Source: a virus
Taxonomy: Duplodnaviria; Caudoviricetes
Virus record (IMG/VR): IMGVR_UViG_3300017987_004445
Coordinates: 1 to 60,010 of that record
Direction: 5' to 3' (one strand)
Length of the DNA stretch: 60,010 nucleotides
Shown here piece after piece: positions 1 through 24,713 of this stretch (within the stretch, counting starts at the first letter, position 1; every line of letters begins with the position of its first letter). The notes below the pieces were generated by a model. It made no database searches and was not told where the DNA came from. It was given only the letters and a program-made list of their open reading frames with translations. The position numbers were made by a program, and so were the translations under genes.

Positions 1-36
1 GTTTTTCTGCAATATGATAATGCGTGAAAAACAATA
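1..36. repeat. Terminal 36-bp direct repeat, copy 1 (circularity overlap)
   Basis: gtttttctgcaatatgataatgcgtgaaaaacaata is identical to 59975-60010. Confidence 0.95.
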
Positions 37-98
37 AAGCACGTCGCAACAGCAACAACAGACCACAGGCACAGCCAAAAACGTTCTTCTCTATCCAT
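1..98 (-). CDS. 5' part of a 63-aa small membrane protein that spans the circular join (continues 59974->59881)
   Basis: AGGAG RBS then ATG at 98; MDREERFWLCLWSVVAVATCFIVFHALSYCRKTNELMVKNG...APKDK* reads through the join to TAA at 59881-59883; one hydrophobic segment. Confidence 0.7.
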   Translation of the reverse strand, partial: MDREERFWLCLWSVVAVATCFIVFHALSYCRK

Positions 99-148
99 GA
101 TTCCTCCTTTGCGCCGAACTCAAGTAAAGTTCCTGCGCGGTTTATTTT

Positions 149-206
149 GGTTAACGTTCAGGGCTATACGATAGTGCGTAGCATTTTGTATAGCCTGTTG
201 TTAAAT
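149..206 (-). mobile_element. attC-like site 1 (58 bp)
   Basis: Minus strand ATTTAAC-AACAG-GCTATAC...GCTACGC...GTATAGC-CCTGAAC-GTTAACC: R''/L''/L'/R' palindrome. Confidence 0.85.
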
Positions 207-218
207 GTGCTACGCTAT

Positions 219-479
219 TCATTTACGCTCCCCAGTTTTGGCCGAATCCTTTTTTCTGTGGAGCGCCCTTGCTTCTTTCTCAATTCGCTTTTCTGCATCT
301 CGATTACATAACGAACATGAACCCCATTCAATATGACCAACATATTCCGTATCTCCAATTTTTACAACATGGCATCCTTCTTCTCTACCCATCATTAAAT
401 CACCCATTCCCATTGGGCCAAGCGAATGTCCACAAATAGGTTGCATTCGTAACGGCAAGAAAACTCGTTTTTGTTTCAT
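219..479 (-). CDS. Cassette-borne hypothetical protein (~86 aa)
   Basis: GAGGAG RBS before ATG 479 (MKQKRVFL); stop lies 12 nt before attC 1. Confidence 0.7.
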   Translation of the reverse strand: MKQKRVFLPLRMQPICGHSLGPMGMGDLMMGREEGCHVVKIGDTEYVGHIEWGSCSLCNRDAEKRIEKEARALHRKKDSAKTGERK

Positions 480-527
480 TTTTTCTCCTCGGCGCGACCT
501 CCCATAAACGAAAGAGGCCAAAATTGC

Positions 528-674
528 ATTTAACGTCAGGGCTACCTGGAGTTTGCCATTCGATTTAAAAATCCTTTACCTTTACAGTATGGACAATGTA
601 TATGACCCGCAACACCTCTACAGTGTTGGCAAATTTGGGCCGAGGCTTCCGAGCCAGGTAGCCCGCTGTTACCG
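528..674 (-). mobile_element. attC-like site 2 (long, 147 bp)
   Basis: Minus strand CGGTAAC-AGCGG-GCTACCTGG...CCAGGTAGC-CCTGAC-GTTAAAT, with inner stem TTTGCCA/TGGCAAA. Confidence 0.75.
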
Positions 675-868
675 GAAGCTTTTGGCGGTTCCTTAATGTG
701 TTCACGGCGATTTAGTTTTTCATCAACAGAAACAGCCCGATTTATTCTCTCTGTTAAATCCGAAGTAAAGCAACACCGACAAGGTTTTTTTTCGTTATCA
801 TCGTGCACCCCATAAACATTGCACCAATCTGCTATTTGTTCAACTACATCTGATAATGTTTCTATCAT
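542..868 (-). CDS. Cassette-borne Cys-rich hypothetical protein (108 aa)
   Basis: GGAGG RBS; CRCC motif plus C-terminal CxxCxG...CxxCxGxG; ORF runs through attC 2. Confidence 0.7.
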   Translation of the reverse strand: MIETLSDVVEQIADWCNVYGVHDDNEKKPCRCCFTSDLTERINRAVSVDEKLNRREHIKEPPKASGNSGLPGSEASAQICQHCRGVAGHIHCPYCKGKGFLNRMANSR

Positions 869-908
869 AAGCCGTGAACCTCCTATTCATTTATGAGCCA
901 AAAATTTA

Positions 909-983
909 CGGTAACGGACTTGCAAGGGTGAAGCGCGAAGCGTTTGGGTGTAGCCCTGCGGAACCACCCTTGCGTAGTTAAGC
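909..983 (-). mobile_element. attC-like site 3 (75 bp)
   Basis: Minus strand GCTTAAC-TACGC-AAGGGTG...GCTTCGC...CACCCTT-GCAAGTCC-GTTACCG; upstream gene's TAA lies inside R''; 912-979 matches 1286-1353 at 67/68. Confidence 0.85.
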
Positions 984-1247
984 GCATGTGTTTGCGTTCC
1001 TTAATTTATTTGGGGGCGATTTCAGTTTCGTAATTTTCAAAACACAGCACTTAGGTATTGTCATACGTCCCACCACTTGGTCGTTGCTATAACTTTGAAA
1101 AACGGTGATATATTTTTTATTATTCCTTTCTATAAATCCAACTGTACGAATTTGAACAGGAAGCATTGGTTGCATATCATCTATAAAATCCCAAGAGCTA
1201 CTACAACCCTTTGAATCTACCCAATCAATCACAATAAGCTGGTGCAT
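978..1247 (-). CDS. Cassette-borne small beta-rich phage protein (89 aa)
   Basis: WxD...TVGF...TIPK pattern of a common small phage protein family; fills the cassette. Confidence 0.75.
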   Translation of the reverse strand: MHQLIVIDWVDSKGCSSSWDFIDDMQPMLPVQIRTVGFIERNNKKYITVFQSYSNDQVVGRMTIPKCCVLKITKLKSPPNKLRNANTCA

Positions 1248-1282
1248 TAAGCCCCCAAATCTAATTGATTAGCAAACATTGT

Positions 1283-1357
1283 GCTTAACGGACTTGCAAG
1301 GGTGAAGCGCGAAGCGTTTGGGTGTAGCCTTGCGGAACCACCCTTGCGTAGTTTGCC
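1283..1357 (-). mobile_element. attC-like site 4 (75 bp)
   Basis: Minus strand GGCAAAC...GTTAAGC; core nearly identical to attC 3. Confidence 0.85.
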
Positions 1358-1362
1358 GATAG

Positions 1363-1677
1363 TCACGCCGATTCCGATGTTGTTGCCAGCGGCATTTGGA
1401 TACCGTTTTTTGCGGCAAATTTTTCTGCATGAACGCGACAATAACAACGCTCTGCCCACGAAACACGGCCAGCGCGACCCGTAACATAGTCATAGGTGCA
1501 TCTAAATTCTGGTCGCAAGTCACAACCACGAACAGAGCAAGCATACCACTTGATATGCTCAGAATCGTTTTCGCGCACAGCCTTATCGTACCTACTTTGG
1601 TAATATTGCAATTTGTTTTCGCTGGCCGTGTAGAGTGGGCCACCCAAGTCGATATTGTGATTCCATGCTTTACCCAT
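1363..1677 (-). CDS. Cassette-borne hypothetical protein, possible Zn-binding (~104 aa)
   Basis: GGAGGA RBS before ATG 1677; CSVRGC...YCRVH; stop 5 nt before attC 4. Confidence 0.7.
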   Translation of the reverse strand: MGKAWNHNIDLGGPLYTASENKLQYYQSRYDKAVRENDSEHIKWYACSVRGCDLRPEFRCTYDYVTGRAGRVSWAERCYCRVHAEKFAAKNGIQMPLATTSESA

Positions 1678-1723
1678 GTTTTCCTCCAAATGCCGTTGGC
1701 ATAATTATTAAAGGCGTGATTTT

Positions 1724-1765
1724 GGCAAACTACTACCATTATGAACAACATCTTAACATACAATT
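1724..1765 (-). mobile_element. Putative attI-like cassette entry site
   Basis: Minus strand ...TATGTTAAGATGTTGTTCATAATGGTAGTA-GTTTGCC; GTTTGCC complements R'' of attC 4, and no hairpin lies upstream. Confidence 0.5.
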
Positions 1766-1944
1766 CTTCGTTTGCGCCTTCTCTCCCAAGGAGTTAGCCT
1801 CTTCGGACATCCCTTGATTGAGTCTACAAGAACAACTCTATCTGCCGGACGCTCTGCATATAATCTTCCATCTTCAACCCATTTCCGGGCCGTACTTACG
1901 GAAACCTTGCGGAGCCTTGCCCATTGTGAAAGACGTAAAAGCAT
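1753..1944 (-). CDS. Small MerR/excisionase-like HTH DNA-binding protein
   Basis: LSQWARLRKVSVSTARKWVEDGRL pattern, 63 aa. Confidence 0.7.
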   Translation of the reverse strand: MLLRLSQWARLRKVSVSTARKWVEDGRLYAERPADRVVLVDSIKGCPKRLTPWERRRKRRIVC

Positions 1945-2373
1945 CTATCCTTCCTTTGCCCGTGTGAGGGGGAGCCGACCAACCAACTCTGCGTTTTCCT
2001 TTTGTGCGACAGGGGAAGGCTCAAGCAACTTTTCTGCTTTATCCACAAGATCACCAATAGGGGTGCTGGTGTCGTATTCCTCATCGTTCCTGAACCTTTT
2101 TATAATTTCCCTCAAGACAGCCACCGCCTCTGCATTTTCCGACTGTGCGACAGGGGAAGGCGGTTTCGGAAGTTCCCTCCAGTGTGTAACGCCATTGTAA
2201 AAGCAATTGTTGCCTGCCCACAGTTTGTCGCTGTTAAAAAAGGCCCAAGCAACCGATCTGAGCCCATCGCTCGAAGTGAAGCATATCAGCTTTGTACCTA
2301 TCCCATCAGGCAAACTGTCCTTCACTGATACCCACTCCACCGCCTCTGCATTTTCCGGCGTTGCTTTCTCCAC
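1945..2373 (-). CDS. DUF551-like protein with repeated linkers
   Basis: WVSVKDSLP...VTHWRELPKPP; ENAE linker occurs three times. Confidence 0.7.
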   Translation of the reverse strand: MEKATPENAEAVEWVSVKDSLPDGIGTKLICFTSSDGLRSVAWAFFNSDKLWAGNNCFYNGVTHWRELPKPPSPVAQSENAEAVAVLREIIKRFRNDEEYDTSTPIGDLVDKAEKLLEPSPVAQKENAELVGRLPLTRAKEG

Positions 2374-2384
2374 GGAAGGGGAGT

Positions 2385-2867
2385 TTAGTTTTTGTAATTT
2401 GATCCCTTTACTGATTTTACTAACCCTCCAATGTTTACGAGTGCTAGATTCGGCCGCTTCTCTAAATAATCTTTTAGAACCTGTATATCAAAGTCTATGT
2501 CACGGGCACCATTATAAAATCTTTCCAGGTTATGATACAGATATAGGTTAAAAACCTCTTGGTAGTCGATATTAAGTGGTTGAAGTAGTGGTTTTTGCTC
2601 AGTAAACGGGAACTGTGAGTGTTCGTAAAACTCAAAATACCGCTTGGATATAACCCGTTTCACCTTGATTTTTTTTTGTTTCCCTGATTCCTGATCTGTA
2701 ATCTCTTTGGTTCTTTCAGTGTGATAGTCCTTTCCCCATTGGCATTTACATACGTAGGATGATACATATGGCATAATATTTTTACCCATACCCTCCAAGC
2801 TGTACACGTTAATAAGACCCGTGTTGTTGCACAGCCTGCATACGTTAAAATCCTGCCACCAGCCCAT
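2385..2867 (-). CDS. Zn-binding protein coupled to the replication initiator
   Basis: CxxCxxxG...CxC; start overlaps the initiator stop codon. Confidence 0.6.
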   Translation of the reverse strand: MGWWQDFNVCRLCNNTGLINVYSLEGMGKNIMPYVSSYVCKCQWGKDYHTERTKEITDQESGKQKKIKVKRVISKRYFEFYEHSQFPFTEQKPLLQPLNIDYQEVFNLYLYHNLERFYNGARDIDFDIQVLKDYLEKRPNLALVNIGGLVKSVKGSNYKN

Positions 2868-3532
2868 TATAAGTATCCTTTCGCTCGGGCTTCTTCTTCT
2901 GTTACGGTTTCAATCTCTTCTTCCTGCCTACCGCGCCCCTTGAAAGTGGTGTCGTTGTTTGCCCACCGCTTCAATCTTCTTTTAAGGTCCCAAGTCTTTT
3001 CCATCTGAAAGCGAACTTTGGTACGCGAGGGGTTGGGTTCAGTCCAATATTCAAAAAAGGCAGTAAGCATCTTCTCTGAATATTCTTTCTTAAATTCTAA
3101 GACTTTTCTTTTGAATATTTCTATTGCATCTTCTATTTCATTTGCTATTTCATCTTCAGCAGGATGTAACACTTCTGTACGTGCTTTTGTTTTTGTTTTG
3201 TTTTTCCTTGCTAAAGTTCTGATATCACTTATGTTAGAAACCTCTAAAAGACGCTCAGAGTAGTAACGGCCCTTATGTTTGCAACACTTTCCAAGCTCAA
3301 AAAAGGACAAAACTTCGGGCTTAATTTGCTCCCATTCTTGAGGTGAAACACGAGCATATACAGCAAGTACCTTATCATCCATTGGGAGGGTTGCTCTTGG
3401 CTCCTCTAACCAAGCTCTGCACAAGAGATACATATATGCTTTGATTACTTTACCAGAGGCCAGCTCAACCTTTCCCGATCCTAGCCAGTCCCTAACATAG
3501 AAAGAAAATGCGGGTGCTTTCATGTTATCCAT
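2867..3532 (-). CDS. Phage replication initiator, DUF1376/YdaU-like
   Basis: N-terminal KAPAFSFYVRDWLG..AYMYLLC; C-terminal FFEYWTE...WDLKRRLKRW helical domain. Confidence 0.8.
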   Translation of the reverse strand: MDNMKAPAFSFYVRDWLGSGKVELASGKVIKAYMYLLCRAWLEEPRATLPMDDKVLAVYARVSPQEWEQIKPEVLSFFELGKCCKHKGRYYSERLLEVSNISDIRTLARKNKTKTKARTEVLHPAEDEIANEIEDAIEIFKRKVLEFKKEYSEKMLTAFFEYWTEPNPSRTKVRFQMEKTWDLKRRLKRWANNDTTFKGRGRQEEEIETVTEEEARAKGYL

Positions 3533-3658
3533 AATAAATAACCAGTGGCCTATCCATATACCGTGTGCAATATATGAACAGACCGGCAGACGGTGAGTCT
3601 GCTTTTACTGGTATTCCTATATTCTGTTTCGGGATGCACACGTTTTGTTCACGATTAA

Positions 3659-3777: not shown

Positions 3778-3915
3778 TCAACTGCTTTTTTTCTTCCTCT
3801 CCCTCACATCCTTCTTCAAACACTTCGGGCACTTAGGATCTGGATAGCTGGACTTAAAGCGCCATCCGCAAGATTTACATACATATTTCCTACACTTAGG
3901 GCTGTATTTAGACAT
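3778..3915 (-). CDS. Small zinc-ribbon protein (45 aa, not in ORF track)
   Basis: MSKYSPKCRKYVCKSCGWRFKSSYPDPKCPKCLKKDV...; two CxxC; overlaps the upstream stop. Confidence 0.6.
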   Translation of the reverse strand: MSKYSPKCRKYVCKSCGWRFKSSYPDPKCPKCLKKDVRERKKKSS

Positions 3916-5821
3916 CCCAGCCTCTTTGTTTTATGAGGTCATTTCTTTGGTCTACCAGCTTCGCATAATATTGTTTCAATTCGGTCTTTGCGTTTTTAAC
4001 CTCATGCCACCATTCCGCCATTCTTTCTTTTGTTTTTGCATCATTTTCAAGCCATTCTTTGTATTCAATATATAAAGCCTCTTCTTGTGGAGGGGCTTCC
4101 TTGGGTTGGGATGTTTCAACTTTTGTTGAGTCTGCGTTTATGCGCTCATTAGTAAGAAATAGTAGATCCTCTTTTTCTGGATCGACATCTGGGAGATCAA
4201 GTAACACCTTTTCTGGGGCTATGTTTGCAACCTTCTGTATGTCTGCAAGCCTAAAATCTCCAGTGATATGTAAGATATAATGATTGCTTTTGGCCTGATT
4301 TCCCTTACTATCTTTAAAAACGGTTTCATGTTTATGCCTTTCAAGCGTTAGGGGAATCATATGGCATCTGCCGCATACAGCCTTTACATACCCCATGCAC
4401 GAATTAAGATTGACTATGGAATGATAGGACCCGGTGTTTATTTGCCATACGCCAACACCTGGGAGTTGTGGAATTAGAACATTCAAAGTTCCAACTTCGC
4501 TACATTCTTTGGCTTTATAGTAAGGGCATTCCTTGCCCGCGCATTTGACTTTTGGGTTGGGCTTATCCTCTATAACCTCTAATTCTTCGGTAAATTTTGG
4601 GTCACTGCAAATGGCCGTCTCGCCGTCTCCTTTGCATTTTAGAGAAGCACTTGAGCCATAGCGCTTGTAGAATTGCGGAAAGTCAATATCCGGGTTCCCT
4701 GTTGGAAGCATAAAATCAAAACGCTTTGGTTTTTCTCCATATAGCTTATGAAATTCTTGTATCATGCGCTGTCGCTCTTCTTCGTTTGGTGTTGCGGGGT
4801 CAAGGATGAAATAGTCAACTTCTTTTGGTCGTTCCTTGCCATTACCTGTTGGCACCTTGATTCCAAGCCTGATTTTGCCCAACCGGGGCAAGCGCTTGAT
4901 TTCAGACAATCCTTTTATAGCCATTTCTTCTTTCTCCTTTTCCTGTTTAAGGTATTTACCATATGGGCAGAATTCTGCTACCTCGCAATATTTTTGGCAG
5001 CGCAATCCATCCCAGTTTTCTTTTCTATTACAGGTTTGGTGCCAATATCCTTGTTTTAAAGCCTTTAAAAGACGCTCGCGTTTGTATTTGAAATACCACA
5101 GCACTTCGTCATCTGGGAGGATTGGTACGTCAAAATAGTATACGTTTCTAAAAACCCCTCGGCTTCTGGCTATGTATAGGCCACCATCTCTAACAATGGC
5201 TTGGATTTTTAATCTTTTAATCTTGCGCTGATGCTTCTTTTCCCATTCGATGCGATATTTGTTTAACTGATAAATCCATTCCCACATATCCACGGATTCT
5301 TCATTGCGCACCAAAACTTGTCGCATTCGCGGCTCACCCTTGCGCTTGCCGCTTTTATATATTTCTCCTGTGGGTTCTTGTTTGGTCGTAAATCCGAGCG
5401 CTTTTGCAACCTTGTATGAGCCCGATGTTTTGTAATCGGCCATGGTTGGAATACTGTCTTCGATTTCCACCACATCTGTAATCCCGGTTTCATCCACATC
5501 TGGTCCCTCGAAACGTTCTTCTAATGTTGAATATTCGTCTTCTGCTGATTCGAGGGCACCATGTCCTTTTGACCCCAACACACGAAAAGCAACATCTTGG
5601 GGAGAAATAGCATAATCCTTGGTGAGGCGCAAAAAAGCCAGCATTGTTCCGTTTATAAGTTGTGTTGTTGAGGGCTTACCTGTCCAAGGTCTTTCGCTTG
5701 CAGCCATTTGCAGATATGAGCGCGTGGCACAACGTTCACTCATACGGCAACCACCCTCTTTTAAGCATTCTGAAATTAAGATTCTCTCAGTGTCCGGGCA
5801 TATGAACCATTTGGTAGGCAT
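3908..5821 (-). CDS. PD-(D/E)xK (Cas4/AddB-like) exonuclease fused to a Gp3/RDF-like recombination protein
   Basis: GITD...ADYKT...QLNKY and C-terminal Cys cluster (RCQKYCEVAEFC); second half begins MAIKGLSEIKRLPRLGKIRLG. Confidence 0.75.
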   Translation of the reverse strand: MPTKWFICPDTERILISECLKEGGCRMSERCATRSYLQMAASERPWTGKPSTTQLINGTMLAFLRLTKDYAISPQDVAFRVLGSKGHGALESAEDEYSTLEERFEGPDVDETGITDVVEIEDSIPTMADYKTSGSYKVAKALGFTTKQEPTGEIYKSGKRKGEPRMRQVLVRNEESVDMWEWIYQLNKYRIEWEKKHQRKIKRLKIQAIVRDGGLYIARSRGVFRNVYYFDVPILPDDEVLWYFKYKRERLLKALKQGYWHQTCNRKENWDGLRCQKYCEVAEFCPYGKYLKQEKEKEEMAIKGLSEIKRLPRLGKIRLGIKVPTGNGKERPKEVDYFILDPATPNEEERQRMIQEFHKLYGEKPKRFDFMLPTGNPDIDFPQFYKRYGSSASLKCKGDGETAICSDPKFTEELEVIEDKPNPKVKCAGKECPYYKAKECSEVGTLNVLIPQLPGVGVWQINTGSYHSIVNLNSCMGYVKAVCGRCHMIPLTLERHKHETVFKDSKGNQAKSNHYILHITGDFRLADIQKVANIAPEKVLLDLPDVDPEKEDLLFLTNERINADSTKVETSQPKEAPPQEEALYIEYKEWLENDAKTKERMAEWWHEVKNAKTELKQYYAKLVDQRNDLIKQRGWDV

Positions 5822-12797: not shown

Positions 12798-12805
12798 GAG
12801 TTTAC

Positions 12806-13648
12806 ATGAAGTGTTTCCACCACAACGACCTCGATGGCTACTGCTCTGGGGCCATAGTTAAATTAGCCCATCCCGAATGCGAATGTTTTGAAATAAACTA
12901 TGATATTCCTTTTCCTCATGATAAGATTGAGAAGAACGAACAGGTATTCGTGGTGGATTACAGCTTTTCAGGCAAGGGCAACGATGATTTTAACAAGCTT
13001 TTAGCTAAAACCCAGTATGTGACTTGGATTGACCACCACAAAACATCTATTGAACAGCATCCTGACAAGGCCCATTTATCAGGTATTCGAGTTGATGATA
13101 AGCCCGCTGCTTGCGAATTGTGCTGGGAACACTTCTTCCCCGGGAGTGTCGTGCCCGTGGCTGTGAAGCTTTTGGGTGACTATGACACCTGGACCTTTGC
13201 GTATGGCACCAAAACAAAGGAATTTCAGGAGGGTATGAAGGTTTTAGACCATGGCCCCGAGGCTGAGGTTTGGAAGCATATTCTGAGCACGCAGCCAACT
13301 GTCAATGAGGTTATTGCCCGAATTAGGCATGACGGCATAGTGTGTCTTGTGTACAAAGAACAGAGATCCAAGGCGCTTATGCGTGCCATATCCTTTGCCA
13401 CGGAGTTTGAAGGGTACAAGGCCATTGCCTGTAATGTGGCACTGGCAAATAGTCAGATGTTTGACAGTGTATCCGAGGATTATGATATCATGCTACCTTT
13501 TTCGTTTAACGGATACATTTACACTGTAAGTATCTACACCTTGAAGCCTGATATTGATTGCTCGGAGATAGCCAAGAAATATGGTGGCGGCGGCCACAGG
13601 CAGGCTTCTGGGTTCCAGTGTGATAAATTGCCATTTGAGAGAACATGA
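12806..13648 (+). CDS. DHH/DHHA1 phosphoesterase (NrnB-like)
   Basis: HNDLDG, VVDYS, WIDHH, YGGGGHRQASGF. Confidence 0.92.
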   Translation: MKCFHHNDLDGYCSGAIVKLAHPECECFEINYDIPFPHDKIEKNEQVFVVDYSFSGKGNDDFNKLLAKTQYVTWIDHHKTSIEQHPDKAHLSGIRVDDKPAACELCWEHFFPGSVVPVAVKLLGDYDTWTFAYGTKTKEFQEGMKVLDHGPEAEVWKHILSTQPTVNEVIARIRHDGIVCLVYKEQRSKALMRAISFATEFEGYKAIACNVALANSQMFDSVSEDYDIMLPFSFNGYIYTVSIYTLKPDIDCSEIAKKYGGGGHRQASGFQCDKLPFERT

Positions 13649-14280
13649 AGACTCTACTTATTAAGCAACCAGCGGGCCTTGGTGATGTCTTTTATTGCCA
13701 GAAAATAGGTAAGGTTTTTGCCGAAGCTGGATGGAAAGTATATTGGCCAGTAATATCACAATACACTTGGCTTGAGAAGTATTTGCGCGGCCCTATAAAA
13801 TATGTGGATGCTCCGTGCCGGCCAGATAAGATTTTGGATCTTCAAAACGCATATCACATTTTAGGGAAAACGAAACCAGAGGAAATGCTACCGGCAAAGT
13901 ATGAGTTGGCTGAAATAGGATCATGGAATTGGGCACAGTATTTTGAGTTTGAGAAGCCAGTTGACCAAGAGCCAGTGCCAGAGGGGGAGTATGCACTAAT
14001 AAATCTTGGTTTTGCTAGCCCGCCCAACGAAGAAAAAGCTGCTGTGGACTGCATGACGCGCATGCCAAAGATATTTATTGAACACAGGCCCACGGTATTT
14101 CATTGGTGTGATGCAATAATGAATGCAGCGGAGTTACATTTTGTTGATACATGTTTTACATATTTAGCTGAAAAACTGCCAATAAAAGCCAAGCGCATGG
14201 TATTGTATCCACGAAAGCCATATCATGATCATGTAATTACAAAAGTTATTTGGAAAAGACCTTGGGAATACCGTGAATAA
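13645..14280 (+). CDS. Glycosyltransferase-like protein (GT-B/GT9-like)
   Basis: GLGD motif near the N-terminus, HFVDTCF; first gene of the glycan cluster. Confidence 0.55.
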   Translation: MKTLLIKQPAGLGDVFYCQKIGKVFAEAGWKVYWPVISQYTWLEKYLRGPIKYVDAPCRPDKILDLQNAYHILGKTKPEEMLPAKYELAEIGSWNWAQYFEFEKPVDQEPVPEGEYALINLGFASPPNEEKAAVDCMTRMPKIFIEHRPTVFHWCDAIMNAAELHFVDTCFTYLAEKLPIKAKRMVLYPRKPYHDHVITKVIWKRPWEYRE

Positions 14281-14872
14281 AATTGAAGGTAGAATATTAG
14301 TTTTTGGTGGTAATGGTGATATTGGTAAGCTTGTTCCTGGTATTAAAATTCCGCGTGAGCAGGTAAATGTAACGAACTACCTTGAAGTCAAGAGATGTAT
14401 ACACTCCCACCGTCCTTCTGCTGTTGTGGATTGTGCTGGTGTATCTTTCCCGCAACCAATAAAGTCGTGTAATGTTGGAAAATGGTGCAATGAAATAAAT
14501 ACAAATTTTATAGGCAGCTTTAATATTGCCAGTGCAAGTATTGAGAACGAGGTGTCTAAAATGGTTTTTATATCATCTTATGCGGGGTTGCATGGGAAAG
14601 CGAAGCGAAGTGGATATTGTGCATCAAAGGCTGGGGTTATCTCTCTTGTCCAGTCTATTGCTGAGGAAGGGCATGAGGTTTATTGTATAAGTCCTTCTCG
14701 TGTGGACACAAAGATGGTGGGGCCTCCGGAGAAGGGAGAGGATATGACAAAGCGGTTGCGCCCACAGGAAATAGTAGATTTGATAGGAGAATGCCTGAAT
14801 GGAGTGTATAAATCAGGGAGTAATATAGTAATACGCAAAAATGGAGATAAAACTGTAAAAGTGGTAATGTAG
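14273..14872 (+). CDS. SDR-family NAD(P) oxidoreductase
   Basis: GGNGDIG, CAG, ISS, YCASK. Confidence 0.9.
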   Translation: MNKIEGRILVFGGNGDIGKLVPGIKIPREQVNVTNYLEVKRCIHSHRPSAVVDCAGVSFPQPIKSCNVGKWCNEINTNFIGSFNIASASIENEVSKMVFISSYAGLHGKAKRSGYCASKAGVISLVQSIAEEGHEVYCISPSRVDTKMVGPPEKGEDMTKRLRPQEIVDLIGECLNGVYKSGSNIVIRKNGDKTVKVVM

Positions 14873-14873
14873 G

Positions 14874-15842
14874 ATGAAATATCTAATTACTGGAATAACT
14901 GGTTTTGCTGGGCCTCATTTGGCCAGTTTATTGGTTTCTAAAGGCCATAAGGTATATGGCTTGGTTCGCTGTAGTAATGGTAGGCATCAGGATATCCGGG
15001 ATGTGGTTGAAGATGGAATATTTAAAGAGATTGAGTTCTTATATGGTGATTTAAATGATAAAGCCCAAATAAATAAAATTTTTCACGATCATCATTTCGA
15101 TGGTGCATTTCATTTAGCTGCTCAATCTCATCCCCCCACATCTTTTGTTAGCCCGATGGCAACTTACAAAGCTAATGTGATGGGTAGCATAAATTTAATT
15201 GAGTCCATAAAAAGGAATAATAGGGAATGTAAGGTAATGTTTTGTTCCACAAGTGAAGTTTATGGGGACACCATTAAGGAAGGACAACTAATAAAAGAAA
15301 CTGATAGAATTGGCCCCGCAAACCCCTATGGTGTATCAAAGGCTGATATTGATTTGTACATGCAAATGCTTATGCACAATAAAATGTTGAAAGGGTTTAT
15401 TACAAGGGCGTTTTCTCATACAGGGCCTCGGCGTGGTTGCAATTTTAGCATATCATCTGATGCGCACCAGCTTGCGGGAATGAAAGATGGCGAAACCCTG
15501 CTTGTTGGGAACTTGGGAACAATAAGAGTGGTAATGGATGTAAGGGATACAGTGAGAGCATACGCTTTACTGATGGAAACGGACCAATCTGAGGGTAAGA
15601 TCTTTAATATTTGCGGCGATACTCCGCGAAAAATGTCATATTTCACAGATGTTCTGATAGAATTAAGTGGATTACAGGATATAAAAATGGCCATAAATCC
15701 GAAGTTTTACAGATCAATTGACATCCACTATCAGCATGGAGACACTACGGCTCTAAAACAGGTAGTGGATTGGAAACCTGAGATAGATATTAAAACTACG
15801 TTATATGACTTGTTAGAGTATTGGAGGAAGAAAATTGGGTGA
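14874..15842 (+). CDS. GDP-mannose 4,6-dehydratase / GDP-sugar reductase family
   Basis: ITGITGFAG, HLAAQSH, STSEVYG, PYGVSK, DVRD. Confidence 0.88.
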   Translation: MKYLITGITGFAGPHLASLLVSKGHKVYGLVRCSNGRHQDIRDVVEDGIFKEIEFLYGDLNDKAQINKIFHDHHFDGAFHLAAQSHPPTSFVSPMATYKANVMGSINLIESIKRNNRECKVMFCSTSEVYGDTIKEGQLIKETDRIGPANPYGVSKADIDLYMQMLMHNKMLKGFITRAFSHTGPRRGCNFSISSDAHQLAGMKDGETLLVGNLGTIRVVMDVRDTVRAYALLMETDQSEGKIFNICGDTPRKMSYFTDVLIELSGLQDIKMAINPKFYRSIDIHYQHGDTTALKQVVDWKPEIDIKTTLYDLLEYWRKKIG

Positions 15843-16440
15843 TTTAAATATTCATGACCTACAGGCTTATATAGATAAATATGGATGTAATATATTTATT
15901 GAGACAGGCACCGGTATTGGGGATGGTATTGCTCATGCGCTGAAGTACCCATTCGATTTCTTTTATTCCATAGAAATAAATAAGGAATTATATAAAAGGG
16001 CGTATGAGAAAATATATCCCAACAATAAAGTTGTCTTAATTAACAAACCTTCAATTGAAGGTCTACAGGCGGTCTTTGGTAATATCATATCTGAACATAC
16101 GTGTCTGTACTGGCTCGACGCACATTTCCCGGGTGCAGACTTTCAACTTGCTTCTTATAGTGATGAGATAGCACACAACCTCAAATATCCGCTTATTCAT
16201 GAGCTGAGGTTGATTCGCAATCGAAGGAAAGGGAAAAAAGATGTTTATATTATTGATGATCTTCAAATGATGGAAGAAGGCGAATATGAGCTTAAGATGA
16301 CAGATGAGTTTTTAGACAAGCATTTTCAGCGTGAGATAAGGCTGGAGATATCTCAGATGTTTAAAGATACGCATGATTTCAGAAAAGATAATCGGCATCA
16401 GGGGTTTTTGATTCTTACTCCTAAGCGTGAAGAGAACTAA
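15835..16440 (+). CDS. SAM-methyltransferase-like protein
   Basis: FIETGTGIG, SIE, YWLDAH, IIDD. Confidence 0.65.
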   Translation: MGDLNIHDLQAYIDKYGCNIFIETGTGIGDGIAHALKYPFDFFYSIEINKELYKRAYEKIYPNNKVVLINKPSIEGLQAVFGNIISEHTCLYWLDAHFPGADFQLASYSDEIAHNLKYPLIHELRLIRNRRKGKKDVYIIDDLQMMEEGEYELKMTDEFLDKHFQREIRLEISQMFKDTHDFRKDNRHQGFLILTPKREEN

Positions 16441-17217
16441 ATGGAGAAGATAAGTGTAATAATTCAGGGTGAGGTATGGCCCAAGACGCTGGAAAATGCA
16501 GAATTTTATCTGCAAGAATTTCCGTTTGTTGACGATGTGGTTATTTCGTGTTGGGAACCTGATGCATATATTCCTTCAGCTCCTGGTGTAAAGGTGGTTA
16601 GAACAAGAAAATTTATACAAGTAGGGTACAGTAATTGCAATTATCAGTTAGTTAGCACAATAAATGGCCTGAAAGCGGCTAGGAATAGATTGTGTGTAAA
16701 AACACGATCAGACCAGCGTATAATATCTCTAGATAGAGTGTATGACCATGCCATGAGCCATGAAGTTGAACCCATACGCTATTTGGGCGGTGACATTAGG
16801 GAGTTTCCTGTATATTGTCTTGCATTACACAAGATATATCCATTCCACATGCAGGACCATCTTATATTTGGTGCCAAGCCGGACATGCTTAAGATATTTG
16901 ATATTCCATTGTATCCAGCTCGGACATTAGATCCAAACGGATTTGTTGGTTTTGGTAAGCAACCGAGGGAACCGATTTATATAGGGGCTTATTATTGTTC
17001 TTTATTTGATGCTCGGGTTAAGAAATTTATTGATAATTATGAAGAATATTTGTGTGACCCCAACCATCAGAAAAAGGAAGTTAAGGTTGTTGACTCCCAG
17101 ATAACAAGTAAGATTTTTCATCCGCTTCCGAGATTGGATATATATTGGGAAAAATTTAATAGCGCGTATTGGTTTGAACGCTATGAACAGTCTGGAGAAT
17201 GTTATTATGAAGCTTGA
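16441..17217 (+). CDS. WavE-like polysaccharide synthesis protein
   Basis: ISVIIQG...NYQLVSTINGL...KTRSD...DHLIFG. Confidence 0.8.
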   Translation: MEKISVIIQGEVWPKTLENAEFYLQEFPFVDDVVISCWEPDAYIPSAPGVKVVRTRKFIQVGYSNCNYQLVSTINGLKAARNRLCVKTRSDQRIISLDRVYDHAMSHEVEPIRYLGGDIREFPVYCLALHKIYPFHMQDHLIFGAKPDMLKIFDIPLYPARTLDPNGFVGFGKQPREPIYIGAYYCSLFDARVKKFIDNYEEYLCDPNHQKKEVKVVDSQITSKIFHPLPRLDIYWEKFNSAYWFERYEQSGECYYEA

Positions 17218-17980
17218 AGGACGCGGAGGTAATAAAGTGCAGTTGTTGGTTAGAAAGACTTTTTCTTCTGAGTCTTTATGCCAATTGCAGGCCAACAAGA
17301 TGATAAAATTAAGAGAAATTGCCAATGAATGTGGTCTTTTCTATGTGCCTGAGATATACAAGATTGAAGGAAACTTTTACGAAATGGAGTATGTAGAAGG
17401 GCGCGAACTCAATGATACATATATGGAATATGAGCCAGAGCATTTGGGAGAAATATTGATTCGTATAATGAAGTCGATAGGAACATATAAGCAATCTGGT
17501 GAAGAGGGTATTTTGGATTATGTGGAAAAGCAAATGACGCAAGGTCACTGTAAGCATCTATGGGACAGGGAACAAGCGGTTAATTATTCGCGTATATTGG
17601 AACGGACTTGTAAATGGAGGTTTTCGCATGGAGATTTTACTTTTGACAATATAATAGATGACGGTAAGCGATTTACACTTATAGATTGTATTTCTCATGA
17701 AAATGGCGAAAGCTTGATTTGGGATGCTGTGAAGCTTTTACAGACCACAGCCATTAACTGGAATTCAATAAAGCATAATGGATTTGCGGGCAAGCGCACA
17801 TTTAAGATGGTTGCTTTAAACGAATATTTTGTAAATAAATTCAGTCCACTTTTTGGCCCGAATATTTTAAAGCTGTATTTTAAATATATACTGTGTATGG
17901 TTGCTGGCTTTACCAATCAGGCTTTACTTTTAAACTATGCTAAAAAATCTGAAGCAGGGCTCTTGGAATTGGTATTATGA
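17207..17980 (+). CDS. APH/choline-kinase-like phosphotransferase
   Basis: VRK, MEYVEG, HGDFTFDNI, LID; GGAG before ATG 17207. Confidence 0.8.
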   Translation: MKLEGRGGNKVQLLVRKTFSSESLCQLQANKMIKLREIANECGLFYVPEIYKIEGNFYEMEYVEGRELNDTYMEYEPEHLGEILIRIMKSIGTYKQSGEEGILDYVEKQMTQGHCKHLWDREQAVNYSRILERTCKWRFSHGDFTFDNIIDDGKRFTLIDCISHENGESLIWDAVKLLQTTAINWNSIKHNGFAGKRTFKMVALNEYFVNKFSPLFGPNILKLYFKYILCMVAGFTNQALLLNYAKKSEAGLLELVL

Positions 17981-18519
17981 TTAAGTTGTTGATAGTTGAT
18001 GTTGATGGGGTGATGACAAATGGCAAGAAGTATTTTGCCAGAGACGGGGAGGTTGTAGCCAAAGGATTTTGTGATAAAGATTGGACAGCAATAAAGAGAT
18101 TTAAATCTATTGGGGTGGATGTTGTGTTGCTGACTGGTGATGCGTACAATGCTTGGATACTGGACAAAAGAGCTATTGATGTTGTTGTTAATAGAGGCGA
18201 TGGCAAGCACAGGGATAAAGCCCTTTATTTAAGTGAGATTTGTGATCGTTTCTGCGTTCGCATTGAGCAAATTGCTTATGTGGGTGATGACTTTTATGAT
18301 ATATCTATTATGAAACTTGTGGGATATGCTTATTGCCCAAAGGATTCAATCGATATGGTGAAACATTGTGAGAATGTCAGGATATTAGGATATAATGGAG
18401 GGGACAATTTTTTGTCGCATTTATTTGAGCATTTGGAATCTTGTGGCTTGATTCCGCGTAAATCGTATGATGAGATATCGGTGAAAATGTACGAACTTGA
18501 CGAGAAAGAGGTATTTTGA
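17977..18519 (+). CDS. KdsC-like HAD phosphatase
   Basis: DVDGVMT, LLTG, K, YVGDDFYD. Confidence 0.88.
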   Translation: MIKLLIVDVDGVMTNGKKYFARDGEVVAKGFCDKDWTAIKRFKSIGVDVVLLTGDAYNAWILDKRAIDVVVNRGDGKHRDKALYLSEICDRFCVRIEQIAYVGDDFYDISIMKLVGYAYCPKDSIDMVKHCENVRILGYNGGDNFLSHLFEHLESCGLIPRKSYDEISVKMYELDEKEVF

Positions 18520-19685
18520 AGAAGTATAACTTGCTGTTGCCTATCGCTGGTAGGGCTCAAAGATTTGTTGATGCTGGATACACGATGCCAAAACCATTGA
18601 TAATGACCGGATATAAACACATGATAGACTGGTCATTGCAGTGTATAAATATTGAGGAATGTCATCTAATATTTATAGTAAGGTTAGAGCATGTATATAA
18701 TTTTGGGATTGATGAAATATTGAGGCAAAAATACGGTTCTGATATTGAAGTATTGACTGTTGATAAAATTACTGGTGGCGCAGCAGAGACGTGTTTGTAT
18801 GCAAAACCTGTCTTGGATGAAAATTTACCTCTTGCAATCTACACACCTGATGTTTGGTTTGATCCTCATTTTTCGATTGATATGGTTGGGGATGAAGCTG
18901 GTTTTTTGCTAACCTTTTTAGCCAATAATCCAGCCCATAGCTATTCATTGTTAGACAATGATAAGAAAATACTAAAGGTTGCAGAAAAAGAAGTCATTTC
19001 TGAACATGCAAATATTGGCTTGTATTACTTTAAAAGTGCTTCTCTGTTTATAAGATATGCAGAGAAAATGATTAATGAAGGCATAAAGAGCAAAAGCGAA
19101 TATTATGTGGCCCCAATATATAACATGATGATAACTGATGGGCATCTTGTTAGGGGATTGGATGTACAGACAGTACATGTTCTAGGAACCCCAGAGGCTC
19201 ATGGCTTCTTTTGTAAGAGGGTATTATGCAAGTTTGGGGATAAACCTCTTGCCATATCTTGCGACCATTCAGGATATGAATTTAAGGCTTTAGCTCTTAG
19301 AATATTGGAAAACAACGGGATTAAATTTATAGATGTAGGCACATACATGGATCGACCGTGTGATTATTACGATTATGTCAGCCAATGTGCTGATTTAATG
19401 AGATCTGGTTCTTGTGATTATTCCATCTCTTTTTGCCGGACAGGACAGGGAGTGAATATTTGCGCTAATAAATTTAGCGGCATAACGTCTGCTTTAGTCT
19501 TTGATGAATACACTGCTGAATATGCTATAAAACATAATTGTGCAAATCATTTTGCCATACCTACAAAGTACGTTAATGCAGAGATATTTAACAAAATGGT
19601 GGGCTTGTGGAAGAGAATTGGTTTTGAAGGCGGTCGTCATTTTACGAGAATAAGCAAATACGATGTTCATATCACAAACACATAA
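18516..19685 (+). CDS. Sugar-phosphate nucleotidyltransferase fused to RpiB/LacAB-type isomerase
   Basis: PIAGRAQRF..GY..PKPLI, EYYVAP, LGTPE; C-terminal SCDHSG, CRTGQG, ANK, HNCAN, FEGGRH. Confidence 0.88.
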   Translation: MKKYNLLLPIAGRAQRFVDAGYTMPKPLIMTGYKHMIDWSLQCINIEECHLIFIVRLEHVYNFGIDEILRQKYGSDIEVLTVDKITGGAAETCLYAKPVLDENLPLAIYTPDVWFDPHFSIDMVGDEAGFLLTFLANNPAHSYSLLDNDKKILKVAEKEVISEHANIGLYYFKSASLFIRYAEKMINEGIKSKSEYYVAPIYNMMITDGHLVRGLDVQTVHVLGTPEAHGFFCKRVLCKFGDKPLAISCDHSGYEFKALALRILENNGIKFIDVGTYMDRPCDYYDYVSQCADLMRSGSCDYSISFCRTGQGVNICANKFSGITSALVFDEYTAEYAIKHNCANHFAIPTKYVNAEIFNKMVGLWKRIGFEGGRHFTRISKYDVHITNT

Positions 19686-20250
19686 GTTGGTTTTTGTCCA
19701 TATACCAAAAACTGGAGGCTGCTCTATTTTTTATCAATTGAAGGAACTGCTTGGTGAGAGAGAGTATCCGGCCCCCAAGCCTGATATATTTCACATGACT
19801 ATATCTGATTTACGGGGTCTTTTCCCAGAAGTATCTTCGTATTTTAAATTTACTATAGTAAGACATCCTCTTAGCAGATTTGTATCCACGTATAATTACT
19901 TGGCCAAATTGCCAGAGCGTAAATGGTGGAATACTTACCAAAAGAGAAGAAAGGATACCACTGATATGTTTGCTGAGGTTGATTTAGGCGATGTGATGTG
20001 GATGCCTCAGTATAAGTTTGTTAGAGGTGGTTATGACTCCAGAGATGGGGTGGATTATATTGGTAAATTTGAGGATTATAGTGGAGCTATAAAGCATGTT
20101 AATTCTGAAAAGGATTTGAATCTTGACCCAGAAGTTGTTATAAATAAAACCGCAAAGGCCAATAAGTTGGACTTGCCCATGGATAATGTTCGTGAATTTG
20201 TATGGGCGGTCTACAAGAAGGATTTTGAGATGTTTGATTATAGACTATAG
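19663..20250 (+). CDS. Sulfotransferase family 2
   Basis: FVHIPKTGG, VRHPLSRFVS, YKKDFEMFDY. Confidence 0.88.
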   Translation: MFISQTHKLVFVHIPKTGGCSIFYQLKELLGEREYPAPKPDIFHMTISDLRGLFPEVSSYFKFTIVRHPLSRFVSTYNYLAKLPERKWWNTYQKRRKDTTDMFAEVDLGDVMWMPQYKFVRGGYDSRDGVDYIGKFEDYSGAIKHVNSEKDLNLDPEVVINKTAKANKLDLPMDNVREFVWAVYKKDFEMFDYRL

Positions 20251-20269
20251 ATTTAGGAGGATGAGATCA

Positions 20270-20863
20270 ATGCTGTCAATACTAATTCCTACTACTGTTA
20301 AGCGCGTAGGGACTTATTGCCCGGATTTGGTACGCTATATCAATAACCAAATTGTTGCTTGTGGGGCCGAAAAGAGAATAGACCTTTTTTGGCTTGGGGA
20401 TAATTACAACATGACGGTAGGCGAGAAGAGGAATAAGCTTCTTGGCTTGGCCAATCGTAAGTATTTGGTGTTTATAGATGATGATGACTGTGTTGATAAA
20501 GATTATGTGAAAGAGATAATGAAAGCTACTATGAAAACTGATAGCGATGTAATAGTATTTGATTGCATAACCAGAGCAGATGGCAAAAACCGCACATTAT
20601 CTAAGTACGGTAAGGATTTTTTCCCATATCAGCAATACGTGGACGATAAGGGAGAAAGACAGTGGAGGGGGTTGGTGGCTCATACTATGGTATGGAAGAC
20701 CGAGATTGCAAAGAGGCATATGTTCCCTGAAAAGAATTATGAGGAAGATATTGAGTGGGCAAAGAAAGCGAATGCAGATATATCTACCGAATATCGAATA
20801 GAAAAGGTTTTGTACTTTTATAGATTTAATAGTCAAGTTTCAGAAACGAGATATGGCCAGTAA
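20270..20863 (+). CDS. Glycosyltransferase family 2
   Basis: LSILIPT, GEKRN, FIDDDD, EED. Confidence 0.88.
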   Translation: MLSILIPTTVKRVGTYCPDLVRYINNQIVACGAEKRIDLFWLGDNYNMTVGEKRNKLLGLANRKYLVFIDDDDCVDKDYVKEIMKATMKTDSDVIVFDCITRADGKNRTLSKYGKDFFPYQQYVDDKGERQWRGLVAHTMVWKTEIAKRHMFPEKNYEEDIEWAKKANADISTEYRIEKVLYFYRFNSQVSETRYGQ

Positions 20864-21819
20864 TGGGGAAGGTTTTGTTCTTGAATATGGCTTGGGATGC
20901 TGCTGGTTGTAGCATTCTCCAATGTAAGGCCATAAATCAACATACGAATTGGCAAGCTCGGCATTTTCGTGCTGTTCCAACATTTGGTTATGATACAGAC
21001 ATCACGCCTGAAAATTATGATAGGGATGAATTTCAGGTGTTGATGGGAAACATGGATGTGATTGAATGGTGTTCTGCTGATTATACATATAATAGCAAAC
21101 ATGATTTCGGCTTTAATTTGTGGGATGTGGCAAAAAATAAAATTAACATCTTTCATGATTACAACTCGTTCCCAGGCCATTGGCAGGATCGGGCATCTGT
21201 TAAAGATTATTGGAACAGAAAGGATGTTCATAAATTTGATGCCATTTTTAGCAGTATTCCTCAAGCTGTATATATTTACAAGGATTGTGTTTATATCCCA
21301 GATGTTGTCGATGAACGTTCTTCTGAATACATACCTGATGAATTTAGAGATTTTTCCGAGGTTCGCTTGGGGCATTGGCCCACTGGTGGTGGTAACAATA
21401 AAAACACCATGGAATTAAGAGAAGCCATAAAAAGAGAACCTGTGAATTATGATATTCCTGCTGGAACCATATCTCATGCAGATGTGTTGACGGCAAAAAG
21501 GGGTGTAAACATAGGATTTGATGCATTGTGGAGGGGTTTTCATGGCATGACAACAATAGAGAATATGGCTTTGGGAATCCCTACAATGTGCAATATAGAT
21601 GATTTTTTCTGGGATGTTTTCTGGGAATGTTTTGAGACGGATAAGAAGCCATTTGAGGATGTGAAGAATATTGATGGTATTGCTGCATGCTTAAAAAAAT
21701 ATAGGAATGACACAGAATCTCTTCGTAGACGGGCTTTAGAAGTTAGGTCGTTTATGGAAAATTATTGGTCTTTTAAAAATGTTGCAGTTAGAATAGTAGG
21801 GGAGTACGAAAAGATATGA
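20863..21819 (+). CDS. GT-B glycosyltransferase (GT4-like)
   Basis: GMTTIENMALGIP signature. Confidence 0.75.
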   Translation: MGKVLFLNMAWDAAGCSILQCKAINQHTNWQARHFRAVPTFGYDTDITPENYDRDEFQVLMGNMDVIEWCSADYTYNSKHDFGFNLWDVAKNKINIFHDYNSFPGHWQDRASVKDYWNRKDVHKFDAIFSSIPQAVYIYKDCVYIPDVVDERSSEYIPDEFRDFSEVRLGHWPTGGGNNKNTMELREAIKREPVNYDIPAGTISHADVLTAKRGVNIGFDALWRGFHGMTTIENMALGIPTMCNIDDFFWDVFWECFETDKKPFEDVKNIDGIAACLKKYRNDTESLRRRALEVRSFMENYWSFKNVAVRIVGEYEKI

Positions 21820-24314: not shown

Positions 24315-24546
24315 TATAGGTGATATCGTAGAAAAATTGGTGATTGAAAATATTAAAATTGCTCATTTGAAGCAACAATTGTCTACCTTATCTGAAGGTA
24401 GCGCGGAATATTCGGTGATATATACCAAAATGATGGTTTTGAATAAAAACCGGAGTGTGATTATTGCGGCGTTGGATGAAAAGGTTGAAAGGGTTGCCAG
24501 TGGCAGAGAAAAAAACAGGCTGCTTGAAATTATCAAAACTTATTGA
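24307..24546 (+). CDS. Small helical protein (DUF4254-like)
   Basis: SIGDIVEKLVIENIKI...NKNRS. Confidence 0.55.
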   Translation: MLSIGDIVEKLVIENIKIAHLKQQLSTLSEGSAEYSVIYTKMMVLNKNRSVIIAALDEKVERVASGREKNRLLEIIKTY

Positions 24547-24713
24547 GGGACTTGTGATTGATTGGATGGAATGGAATCAATCACACTCACGAGCTATCAA
24601 TTCTGAAGTTGACATCAATGTGCGGGATATTTCTGCCAGAAGGTGTGAGCAGATAGTTAATAACAGGTATAACACGATAAATGCAATTGATTTGAATATG
24701 GAGGCAGCTTTAC

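Follow-up and report, generated by a model that had tools for sequence, protein, structure and literature searches.

We analyzed the IMG/VR virus record IMGVR_UViG_3300017987_004445, a stretch of 60,010 bases that is hereafter called the window and that comprises the whole record, and describe an integron-like array of four small gene cassettes that it carries near its left end. Because the final 36 bases repeat the first 36 as direct terminal repeats, we treat the window as a circular assembly. The array is located within a tightly packed operon on the minus strand, which runs from approximately 7235 down to 1 and then across the record ends to approximately 57,800. This operon encodes an HNH protein, a 637-amino-acid (aa) protein with a Gp3-like domain, DUF1376 and DUF551 proteins, and a small helix-turn-helix protein, with RlaP, VRR-NUC, and MarR-like proteins encoded after the array. 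The backbone genes abut or overlap, and the gaps between the open reading frames (ORFs) of the array are 62 to 120 nucleotides (nt). The features of the array are as follows; here and below, a slash within a sequence marks a crossover point.

149 to 207, minus strand: palindrome A, 58 to 59 bp, the putative recombination site closing cassette 1.
155 to 533, minus strand: cassette 1, 379 bp, made up of a leader, ORF1 (479 to 219, 86 aa, no assigned function), and site A.
527 to 674, minus strand: palindrome B, 147 to 148 bp, closing cassette 2, with 11-bp arms (539 to 549 and 654 to 664) and a 104-nt loop.
534 to 914, minus strand: cassette 2, 381 bp, with ORF2 (868 to 542, 108 aa).
909 to 983, minus strand: palindrome C, 75 bp, closing cassette 3, with 9-bp arms.
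915 to 1288, minus strand: cassette 3, 374 bp, with ORF3 (1247 to 978, 89 aa, no assigned function).
1283 to 1357, minus strand: palindrome D, 75 bp, a near-copy of C, closing cassette 4.
1289 to 1729, minus strand: cassette 4, 441 bp, with ORF4 (1677 to 1363, 104 aa).
1724 to 1733, minus strand: head junction of the array, GGCAAAC/TAC, which reads GTAG/TTTGCC on the coding strand and has no hairpin after it.

The four palindromes are each bounded by AAC and GTT, in the form xxxxAAC ... GTTxxxx, and separate four minus-strand genes, with one ORF per unit and a Shine-Dalgarno sequence providing each ORF with a good ribosome-binding site. The perfect stems of A, B, C, and D are 8, 11, 9, and 9 bp long, respectively, and from TAAC to GTT sites C and D differ by a single base (74 of 75 identical). 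A first-pass annotation, made from the sequence alone, had reported that the box opening each unit complements the box closing the same unit and had given unit lengths of 441, 374, 381, and 379 bp. We found all of its coordinates and boxes to be as it gave them, with the box after GTT complementing the box before the next AAC in each of the four units, and its unit lengths to equal the spacing of successive AAC triplets. The pairs are GTTAAATG (200-207) and CATTTAAC (527-534) in unit 1, GTTACCG (668-674) and CGGTAAC (909-915) in unit 2, GTTAAGC (977-983) and GCTTAAC (1283-1289) in unit 3, and GTTTGCC (1351-1357) and GGCAAAC (1724-1730) in unit 4. The four to five variable bases of each box are thus complementary at the three internal junctions and also at the fourth site, 1724-1730, which lacks a hairpin. 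Complementarity extends beyond the boxes in unit 2, where the cassette ends pair over 19 nt at 84% (668-686 and 897-915), and in unit 4, where the head junction is complementary at 10 of 10 positions to 1348-1357. The left box of A, GGTTAAC, forms the tail junction between array and backbone, with its crossover (AA/C) at 154/155, and its complement, GTTAACC, is unique in the record. The limits of the array, GTAG/TT at the head and G/TTAACC at the tail, resemble an insertion into a single GTT.

Since the palindromes fix the positions of the boxes, the agreement at the three internal junctions (5 + 4 + 4 variable bases) would be expected by chance with a probability of about 4^-13 by our own arithmetic. 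Window positions 1 to 1800 contain 10 complementary 7-nt GTT/AAC box pairs, while 200 shuffles averaged 2.68 such pairs and reached at most 9. Two looser tests were at chance level and did not discriminate: the whole window has 13 AAC-stem-GTT hairpins (3 to 14 in 20 shuffles) and 20 unconstrained 7-mer pairs (mean of 16.7 in 100 shuffles). As a positive control we used Tetrasphaera phage TJE1, in which the same signature was present at both of the two junctions (GTTATAC with GTATAAC and GTTATGC with GCATAAC), which indicates that the box rule used by the first-pass annotation is sound.

The box rule by itself is symmetric and does not assign the crossover strand. We place the crossover at AA/C on the non-coding strand, which is G/TT at the 3' end of the site on the coding strand, because ORF2 would otherwise span two units, because the boundaries between constant and variable sequence fall at the tail and head AAC, and because genes travel with the hairpin 3' of them (see below). 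The opposite, plus-strand reading, in which a gene is tied to its 5' hairpin, was rejected, as ORF2 would straddle two units and genes move with the 3' hairpin. ORF2 reads through the R'' box and the entire loop of B (550-653 is coding), so that its last 44 residues, with the motif CxxC...CxxCxGxG, are encoded within the palindrome. Its N-terminal 56 residues have a stand-alone 66-aa homologue, which is without the CxxC...CxxCxGxG part, and the B loop may be a nested or fused cassette. We also observed 8 nt of complementarity between GTTTGCCA in the B loop (551-558) and TGGCAAAC at the array head (1723-1730); the box of D itself pairs there over one nt fewer.

Natural variation around the array was observed in assembled contigs of four public runs (X1 to X4) that contain this stretch and that probably represent two data sets, because their piece lengths are identical. 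In all four runs, a 2115-nt contig matches window positions 128-157 (and on to 166 if two changes are allowed) before diverging. In X2 and X4, one contig departs from the reference after 1354, and another joins the reference at 1728. Compared to the nearest triplets, these branch points are displaced by +2 from AAC 153-155, by +1 from GTT 1351-1353, and by nothing from AAC 1728-1730. Because the branch points fall at these triplets, the sequence from the tail AAC to the head AAC appears to be variable and its flanks constant in the population. Further breaks at 912-955 and approximately 1300-1315 are accounted for by the C/D repeat itself, and differences in depth between contig pieces (for example, 18.9 for 926-1315 versus 10.9 and 12.8 in X1) were not taken as evidence. 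An inversion of units was rejected, as the sequence that departs at 1354 does not correspond, in reverse complement, to the opposite end of the unit, and so was target duplication of the miniature inverted-repeat transposable element type, as the flanks are inverted, not direct.

When the three loose-end 30-mers were searched against IMG/VR, two had no match, and the 30-nt branch sequence that enters at 1728 was found exactly in five loci of four contigs, none of which is similar to the window by blastn. In each of these loci, the 30-mer terminates a conserved leader of about 50 nt that lies before an N6/N4 DNA methylase gene and ends at AAC, and the sequence beyond AAC differs in every locus. 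The same contigs carry arrays of the same design, in which genes on one strand are separated by xxxxAAC-hairpin-GTTxxxx and have complementary boxes across each gene. Three array-bearing phages are referred to below as G001, L181, and G003. G001 is 45.6 kb long, and its array region covers approximately 7 kb across the contig ends; it contains 7 complementary 9-nt box pairs, where the remainder of the genome would predict 0.36 and 200 shuffles averaged 0.85 with at most 5, and among the 10 array ORFs that were scanned are three DNA methylases (two N6/N4, one C5). L181 has three cassettes with 5 complementary 8-nt pairs, compared to 0.29 on average and at most 3 in shuffles.

The backbones of L181 and G001 beside the array head are 78% identical over 248 nt, and the two arrays have in common a 55-aa cassette (93% over 304 nt) and a methylase cassette (77 to 79%). 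These two shared cassettes are in swapped order, their neighbors differ, the identity ends at AAC on both sides, and every gene retains the hairpin 3' of itself, so that gene and site are mobile as a unit. One crossover in G001 is at an AAC four bases upstream of that of L181 (TTGCAAC/ compared to TTGCAACCAAC/). G003, an unrelated phage, shares the end of the methylase cassette (88% over 175 nt). Because L181 and G001 swap the order of two cassettes with identity stopping at AAC, we conclude that the cassettes are real mobile units that recombine at AA/C. The window itself has two direct links to the other arrays, namely, the methylase leader at its variant array head and a G001 site that starts with AACGTTCAGGGCAA, like AACGTTCAGGGCTA of A. 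The array head AAC/TAC (GTAG/TT on the coding strand) is present in the window, G001, and L181. At the protein level, G003 and the window have in common only distant structural proteins and an HNH motif, and the window and G001 only DUF1376. The first-pass annotation had proposed that related phages and raw reads be compared for gain, loss, or reordering of cassettes exactly at G/TT. Within the scope of contigs and other phages, this was borne out: contig branches lie on or within 2 nt of AAC/GTT triplets, and cassettes have been replaced, shared, and reordered at AAC.

Two additional observations were made on the methylase cassettes of these phages. Their ends (L181 4163-4215 and 4890-4943, and also in G001 and G003) form three inverted-repeat blocks of 9 + 8 + 9 nt over approximately 45 nt. 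Over 30 nt, their leader (about 50 nt long; motif CTATAAAT, which reads ATTTATAG on the coding strand) shows 100% conservation, and the methylase genes themselves diverge by 20 to 25%.

The repeated sequences described above raise the question of ordinary phage recombination, which would require no site-specific recombinase and for which the palindromes would be homology patches or template-switch points. The near-identity of C and D speaks for this explanation, as do the leaders and hairpins shared by G001, L181, and G003, which amount to 50 to 90 nt of homology; exchange driven by homology would leave breakpoints at the edges of repeats, and one module in the window population (positions 1-157 plus 87 nt over the record end) stops near a stop codon without AAC or GTT. 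It leaves unexplained, however, the complementarity of the boxes (4 of 4 window units and seven 9-nt pairs in G001), the exchange between cassettes with dissimilar hairpins, and the shift of the crossover to a neighboring AAC in G001 compared to L181, and we consider it unlikely. An effect at the level of RNA is more improbable still. The palindromes sit between the cistrons of one operon and could be terminators, processing sites, or long-range stems, with the complementarity of the unit ends enclosing each cistron and the mosaic boundaries being incidental. However, the coding strand of A to D has no T tract or terminator-like call, there is no consistent promoter, stems of 7 to 10 bp across 300 nt are weak for RNA processing, and neither the invariant AAC and GTT nor the mobility of units across phages is predicted. 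Intrinsic terminators and promoter-stem-loops were likewise rejected as candidates, with no support at A to D.

We investigated which enzyme could move these cassettes. The statement of the first-pass annotation that no integrase is present was confirmed, as six-frame searches of the 60,010-base record returned 0 candidates for TIGR02249, PF00589, PF00239, and PF01797, that is, no integron integrase and no tyrosine, serine, or Y1-HUH recombinase, and Pfam scans of the early genes likewise found none. A complete integron platform, with intI beside the array, also had 0 candidates in the window (TIGR02249 and PF00589). Tyrosine recombinases were absent from G000 to G004, including all four contigs with the 30-mer, serine recombinases from the window, and PF01797 (Y1 HUH) from G000, G001, and G002. 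In G003, a 31-residue C-terminal remnant of an IS200-type Y1 transposase scored 21.8 bits, below the cut-off:

L189 1486 to 1758 (G003 record 4051 to 4143), minus strand: Y1 transposase remnant, between phage genes, near the G003 array.

IS200/IS605 and REP-RAYT elements were ruled out, with one hairpin per unit and no Y1 transposase beyond this remnant.

The first-pass annotation had interpreted the array as a phage-borne cluster of attC sites lacking integrase (CALIN) whose cassettes are moved by an integrase borrowed from the host. The parts of this interpretation that stood are the discrete one-gene cassettes, the hairpin site, the G/TT crossover, the location at the end of a packed phage operon, and the lack of any recombinase found; the part that did not gain the same support is the action of a host integron integrase, and the sites depart from canonical attC. 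A CALIN has at least two attC sites and no integrase; no integrase was found in the record, and the outcome hinges on whether the four sites count as attC. We give an even chance to the reading that these are integron-type cassettes moved by an integron integrase that the host supplies, and the use of such a host enzyme is plausible. As the circular genome yielded no recombinase, the enzyme most likely comes from the host. A host integron integrase is the simplest candidate because the array has the crossover triplet, unit structure, and box signature of integrons, and because the available text of two reports describes the insertion of cassettes by integron integrases at genomic GWT sites, outside integrons (Loot et al., bioRxiv 10.1101/2022.09.11.507474), and the recombination by IntI1 of 5 of 6 tested phage-borne attC sites (PMC9892861).

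The mechanism that we propose would be as follows. Its anatomy and box signature, the breakpoints in natural variants, and the sharing and reordering of cassettes among other phages are observed; that a circular intermediate forms, that its single strand folds, and which enzyme acts are what we infer. The four cassettes at 155-1729 would occupy a GTT site (GTAG/TT) at the end of the replication/early operon, and in each a short leader would precede one gene, with a hairpin recombination site behind it. Crossover would take place between the A and C of AAC on the non-coding (plus) strand. In the free circle, the bases after G/TT and those before the cassette's own AAC would pair as the outer stem of one long hairpin, which would be why they complement each other; when modeled as circular cassettes, the sites formed continuous hairpins with R stems of 8 to 10 bp and energies of -13.6 to -25.4 kcal/mol. 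The first cassette may enter at a GWT-type secondary site and later ones by site-by-site recombination, so that cassettes could be gained, lost, exchanged, and reordered at AAC/GTT triplets. The enzyme would be the host integron integrase or a close relative, supplied during infection, and the cassettes would be transcribed from the phage's own upstream promoter.

We compared the geometry of the sites to the definition of attC given in the available portion of Nivina et al. 2016 (PMC5027507), using as controls, analyzed with the same script, five class-1 sites in a P1 phage isolate and two TJE1 phage sites; two further class-1 regions were dropped for lack of a pattern match and one phage-family site because of a trimming failure. 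Inverted R''/R' boxes (AAC...GTT) are present at the ends of imperfect hairpins in all four window sites and in the G001, L181, and G003 sites as well. The consensus (RYYYAAC and GTTRRRY) is fitted fully by two of the five coding-strand G/TT boxes (GTTAAGC and GTTAAAT) but not by GTTAACC, GTTACCG, or GTTTGCC. The site lengths are 58 to 59 bp for A, 75 bp for C and D, and 147 to 148 bp for B, compared to 57 to 141 bp as given in that portion of PMC5027507. The spacers on the AAC and GTT sides are 3 and 2 nt in A (by eye), 4 and 3 nt in B, and 6 and 3 nt in both C and D. In all five canonical controls evaluated, the arm on the GTT side is longer by 1 to 2 nt, and the bulged bases are on the GTT-side arm of the bottom strand.

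Several results weigh against the involvement of a host integron integrase. In the phage family as a whole, spacers are 4 to 6 nt on the AAC side and 1 to 3 nt on the GTT side, compared to 6 and 5 nt in the class-1 controls, with some rows mis-trimmed. In 13 of 15 sites the arm on the AAC side exceeds the other by 1 to 7 nt; the two remaining sites, of one type, have a difference of -3. When we followed the suggestion of the first-pass annotation to look for extrahelical bases, B, C, and D had none, and the single bulged base of A was on the crossover arm instead of the expected arm. Complementarity of the cassette ends reaches 10 to 45 nt, well beyond the 7-bp R box, compared to 8 nt in the TJE1 control, and one G001 junction violates the box rule (GTTGGTTA versus GTTGCAAT). 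The folding energy of the integrated sites is weak, with z values of -0.75 to -2.5 compared to shuffles. When nine sites from G001, L181, and G003 were combined into a covariance model, it gave 15 window matches at E <= 10, none of them on A to D; since few sites enter this model and the box sequence that they share weighs on it, the result speaks against a single tight sequence family and not against a shared design. Rfam searches at gathering and E-value thresholds returned nothing relevant in the window. A host chromosomal integron with matching sites, which the first-pass annotation had also proposed looking for, did not emerge: no matching site family for the C/D arms was present in 185,579 species genomes, and none was found in JGI metagenomes or IMG/VR. 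A recombinase may moreover have been missed, since the record is 74% complete according to CheckV despite its terminal repeats, G001 is 85% complete, and G003 is 56% complete. Finally, the four runs are held as assembled contigs and not as raw reads; they form at most two data sets and may be the window's own source.

The individual matches from these searches were inspected. The C/D arm pattern matched 13 IMG/VR and 40 genome loci, all of them unrelated hairpins or chance, and the C/D 19-mer had one chance match in JGI metagenomes. The A/B left-arm pattern matched 45 IMG/VR loci, and in none of them was the corresponding right arm found between genes (L135 and L148 are inside a gene). In one metagenome-assembled genome of Deltaproteobacteria, a dispersed repeat of approximately 57 nt with arms TTGCAAGGGTG...CACCCTTGC and conserved flanks was present on four contigs (L018, L030, L045, and L052); it is a different element, unlike the window sites beyond the searched arms.

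The same departures from attC suggest an alternative in which movement at AA/C is site specific, the sites form a class of their own, and the enzyme is a non-classical recombinase. It would recognize hairpins whose asymmetry is reversed and whose outer stems are long, and it could be an unrecognized protein of the phage or a different enzyme of the host. The reversed arm asymmetry (13 of 15 sites compared to 0 of 5 canonical controls) points in this direction, as do the build AAC-G-N-N-T-stem...stem-T-GTT that is kept across G001, L181, and G003, the end complementarity in three blocks over approximately 45 nt, and a leader of about 50 nt that is more conserved than the genes behind it. The pool of cassettes also looks phage centered, with DNA methylases making up 3 of 10 G001 array ORFs, and the C/D arms were matched in no prokaryote genome. 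Conversely, no protein is common to all three array-bearing phages (tblastn, E <= 1e-5), integrons have exactly the same AAC and GTT triplets, the same point of crossover, and the same one-gene units in which the ORF comes before its site, and an IS200-type Y1 transposase is present only as the 31-residue remnant in G003. We regard this alternative as possible but doubtful. A broader form of it is, in our judgment, somewhat speculative and rather improbable: marine/sediment phages would keep an integron-like cassette pool of their own at a fixed GTAG/TT, exchanged between unrelated phages via a distinct hairpin class and handled by an unrecognized non-classical recombinase. The pool would hold DNA methylases, zinc-ribbon genes, and other small genes, with sites that have long outer stems and an asymmetry opposite to that of attC.

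Arrays of modular early genes are also known from T4-type phages, in which promoter-early stem-loop (PeSL) modules carry an early promoter and recombine by homology. The window array resembles them in its small early phage genes, the repeated stem-loops between these, and the modular shuffling. Unlike PeSLs, it is without a consistent promoter, and its units have specific complementary ends with invariant AAC and GTT.

Phage-borne arrays without an integrase are, as a kind, already published: the available text of Qi et al. 2023 (PMC9892861) describes a set of 10,705 phage genomes in which 17 attC clusters lack an integrase and include methylases in their cargo, and a full-text literature search yielded no further paper on such arrays. 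Like the phage CALINs exemplified by TJE1, the window array consists of co-oriented one-gene cassettes with AAC...GTT hairpins and complementary boxes in a phage that lacks an integrase, and DNA methylases are part of the cargo of the window family, as they are in the clusters covered by that text. Unlike the window family, TJE1 folds like class-1 attC, with a GTT-side arm that is longer by 1 to 2 nt, bulges on that arm, and approximately 8 nt of complementarity; the window family has the reverse asymmetry, short and unequal spacers, and outer stems of 10 to 45 nt. Compared to bacterial integron cassettes as described in the available part of PMC5027507, the array has the same AA/C crossover in the R box, inverted R' and R'' boxes, and a hairpin that varies in its terminal part. 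In both, single genes without promoters are each followed by a site, and the near-identity of C and D resembles the sites within one array of a chromosomal integron. It differs in being without an intI, attI, or Pc platform. It also differs from canonical attC as set out in the same part of PMC5027507, in which spacers of 5 to 6 nt are found on both arms, 2 to 3 extrahelical bases are on the L'' arm, and site lengths reach 141 bp, compared to 147 bp with a coding loop in B. Insertion at GWT sites ("attG"; Loot et al.) would offer a route for a first cassette into a genome without an att site, and the array lies as if in one GTT; that work, in its available text, concerns IntI1 to IntI3 and the chromosomes of E. 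coli and V. cholerae, not phage DNA, and is silent on the unusual geometry.

Compared to the available text of PMC9892861, the site geometry, the long outer stems and conserved leader, and the natural replacement, sharing, and reordering of cassettes among uncultivated phages appear to be new. Integrons are seen as bacterial platforms, and phage arrays have been reported only recently, as rare passengers. The present array combines an unusually clean signature with natural replacement within one phage population and with cassettes that are found again in a different order and in unrelated phages. Site-specific cassette exchange would then be a working route by which phages gather accessory genes, including DNA methylases, without a recombinase of their own. 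The departure from canonical attC poses the question of whether such sites are substrates for any known integron integrase, and in which strand, or whether another enzyme acts.

The proteins encoded by the cassettes were compared to known families. ORF1 had no Pfam or PHROG family, and its Atlas hits were all <0.9. ORF3 had a weak match to PHROG 25889 (E = 7e-4) and no homologue by word search. ORF4 belongs to a small conserved family (YxYVTGRAGRVSWA...HAxKFAAK) with 15 metagenome homologues; this family had no match in IMG/VR, and the Atlas look-up of ORF4 gave only values <0.9. The backbone genes on either side of the array are as follows.

3 to 98, minus strand: beginning of a 63-aa gene, the first that follows the array, which continues across the record ends and overlaps the next gene.
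1753 to 1944, minus strand: backbone gene directly upstream of the array, 63 aa, with a weak helix-turn-helix match (PF12728, E = 0.008, under the curated cut-off; PHROG 57, E = 3e-4).

The first gene after the array is covered by a 244-nt contig piece (window 1-157 together with the 87 bases that directly precede the terminal repeat), the depth of which is approximately the sum of two alternative continuations. The far end of this piece is two codons before the stop of the gene and has no AAC or GTT, and it marks a different module boundary. The DUF551 protein (window 1945-2373) contains three PSPVAQ.ENAE.V-like repeats, which are DNA direct repeats at 1980-2020, 2121-2161, and 2337-2364, and a second allele of this protein is present in a 62,685-base contig of the window phage.

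No cultured phage resembling the window was found with the 692-aa late-region ORF (30943-33021) or window 1-3600 as queries, and none matched the L181 cassette region. The 637-aa protein (window 3908-5821) returned no relatives as a single query and 73 loci when an alignment was used as the query. It is a fusion protein, of which residues 1-298 alone are matched by many relatives of about 300 aa and residues 300-590 alone, the Gp3-like part, by others. The 73 loci have no other early gene in common with the window and, by a strict hairpin scan, no arrays, and they are therefore unusable as close relatives. Further along the window, approximately 17 kb of co-oriented genes (12800-30300) has a G+C content of 0.37 to 0.40, compared to 0.44 to 0.49 elsewhere. 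These genes encode nucleotide-sugar enzymes, including a GDP-mannose dehydratase-like protein, two epimerases, a DegT aminotransferase, and a radical SAM protein, together with a sugar isomerase fused to a nucleotidyl transferase, WavE, and methyltransferases.

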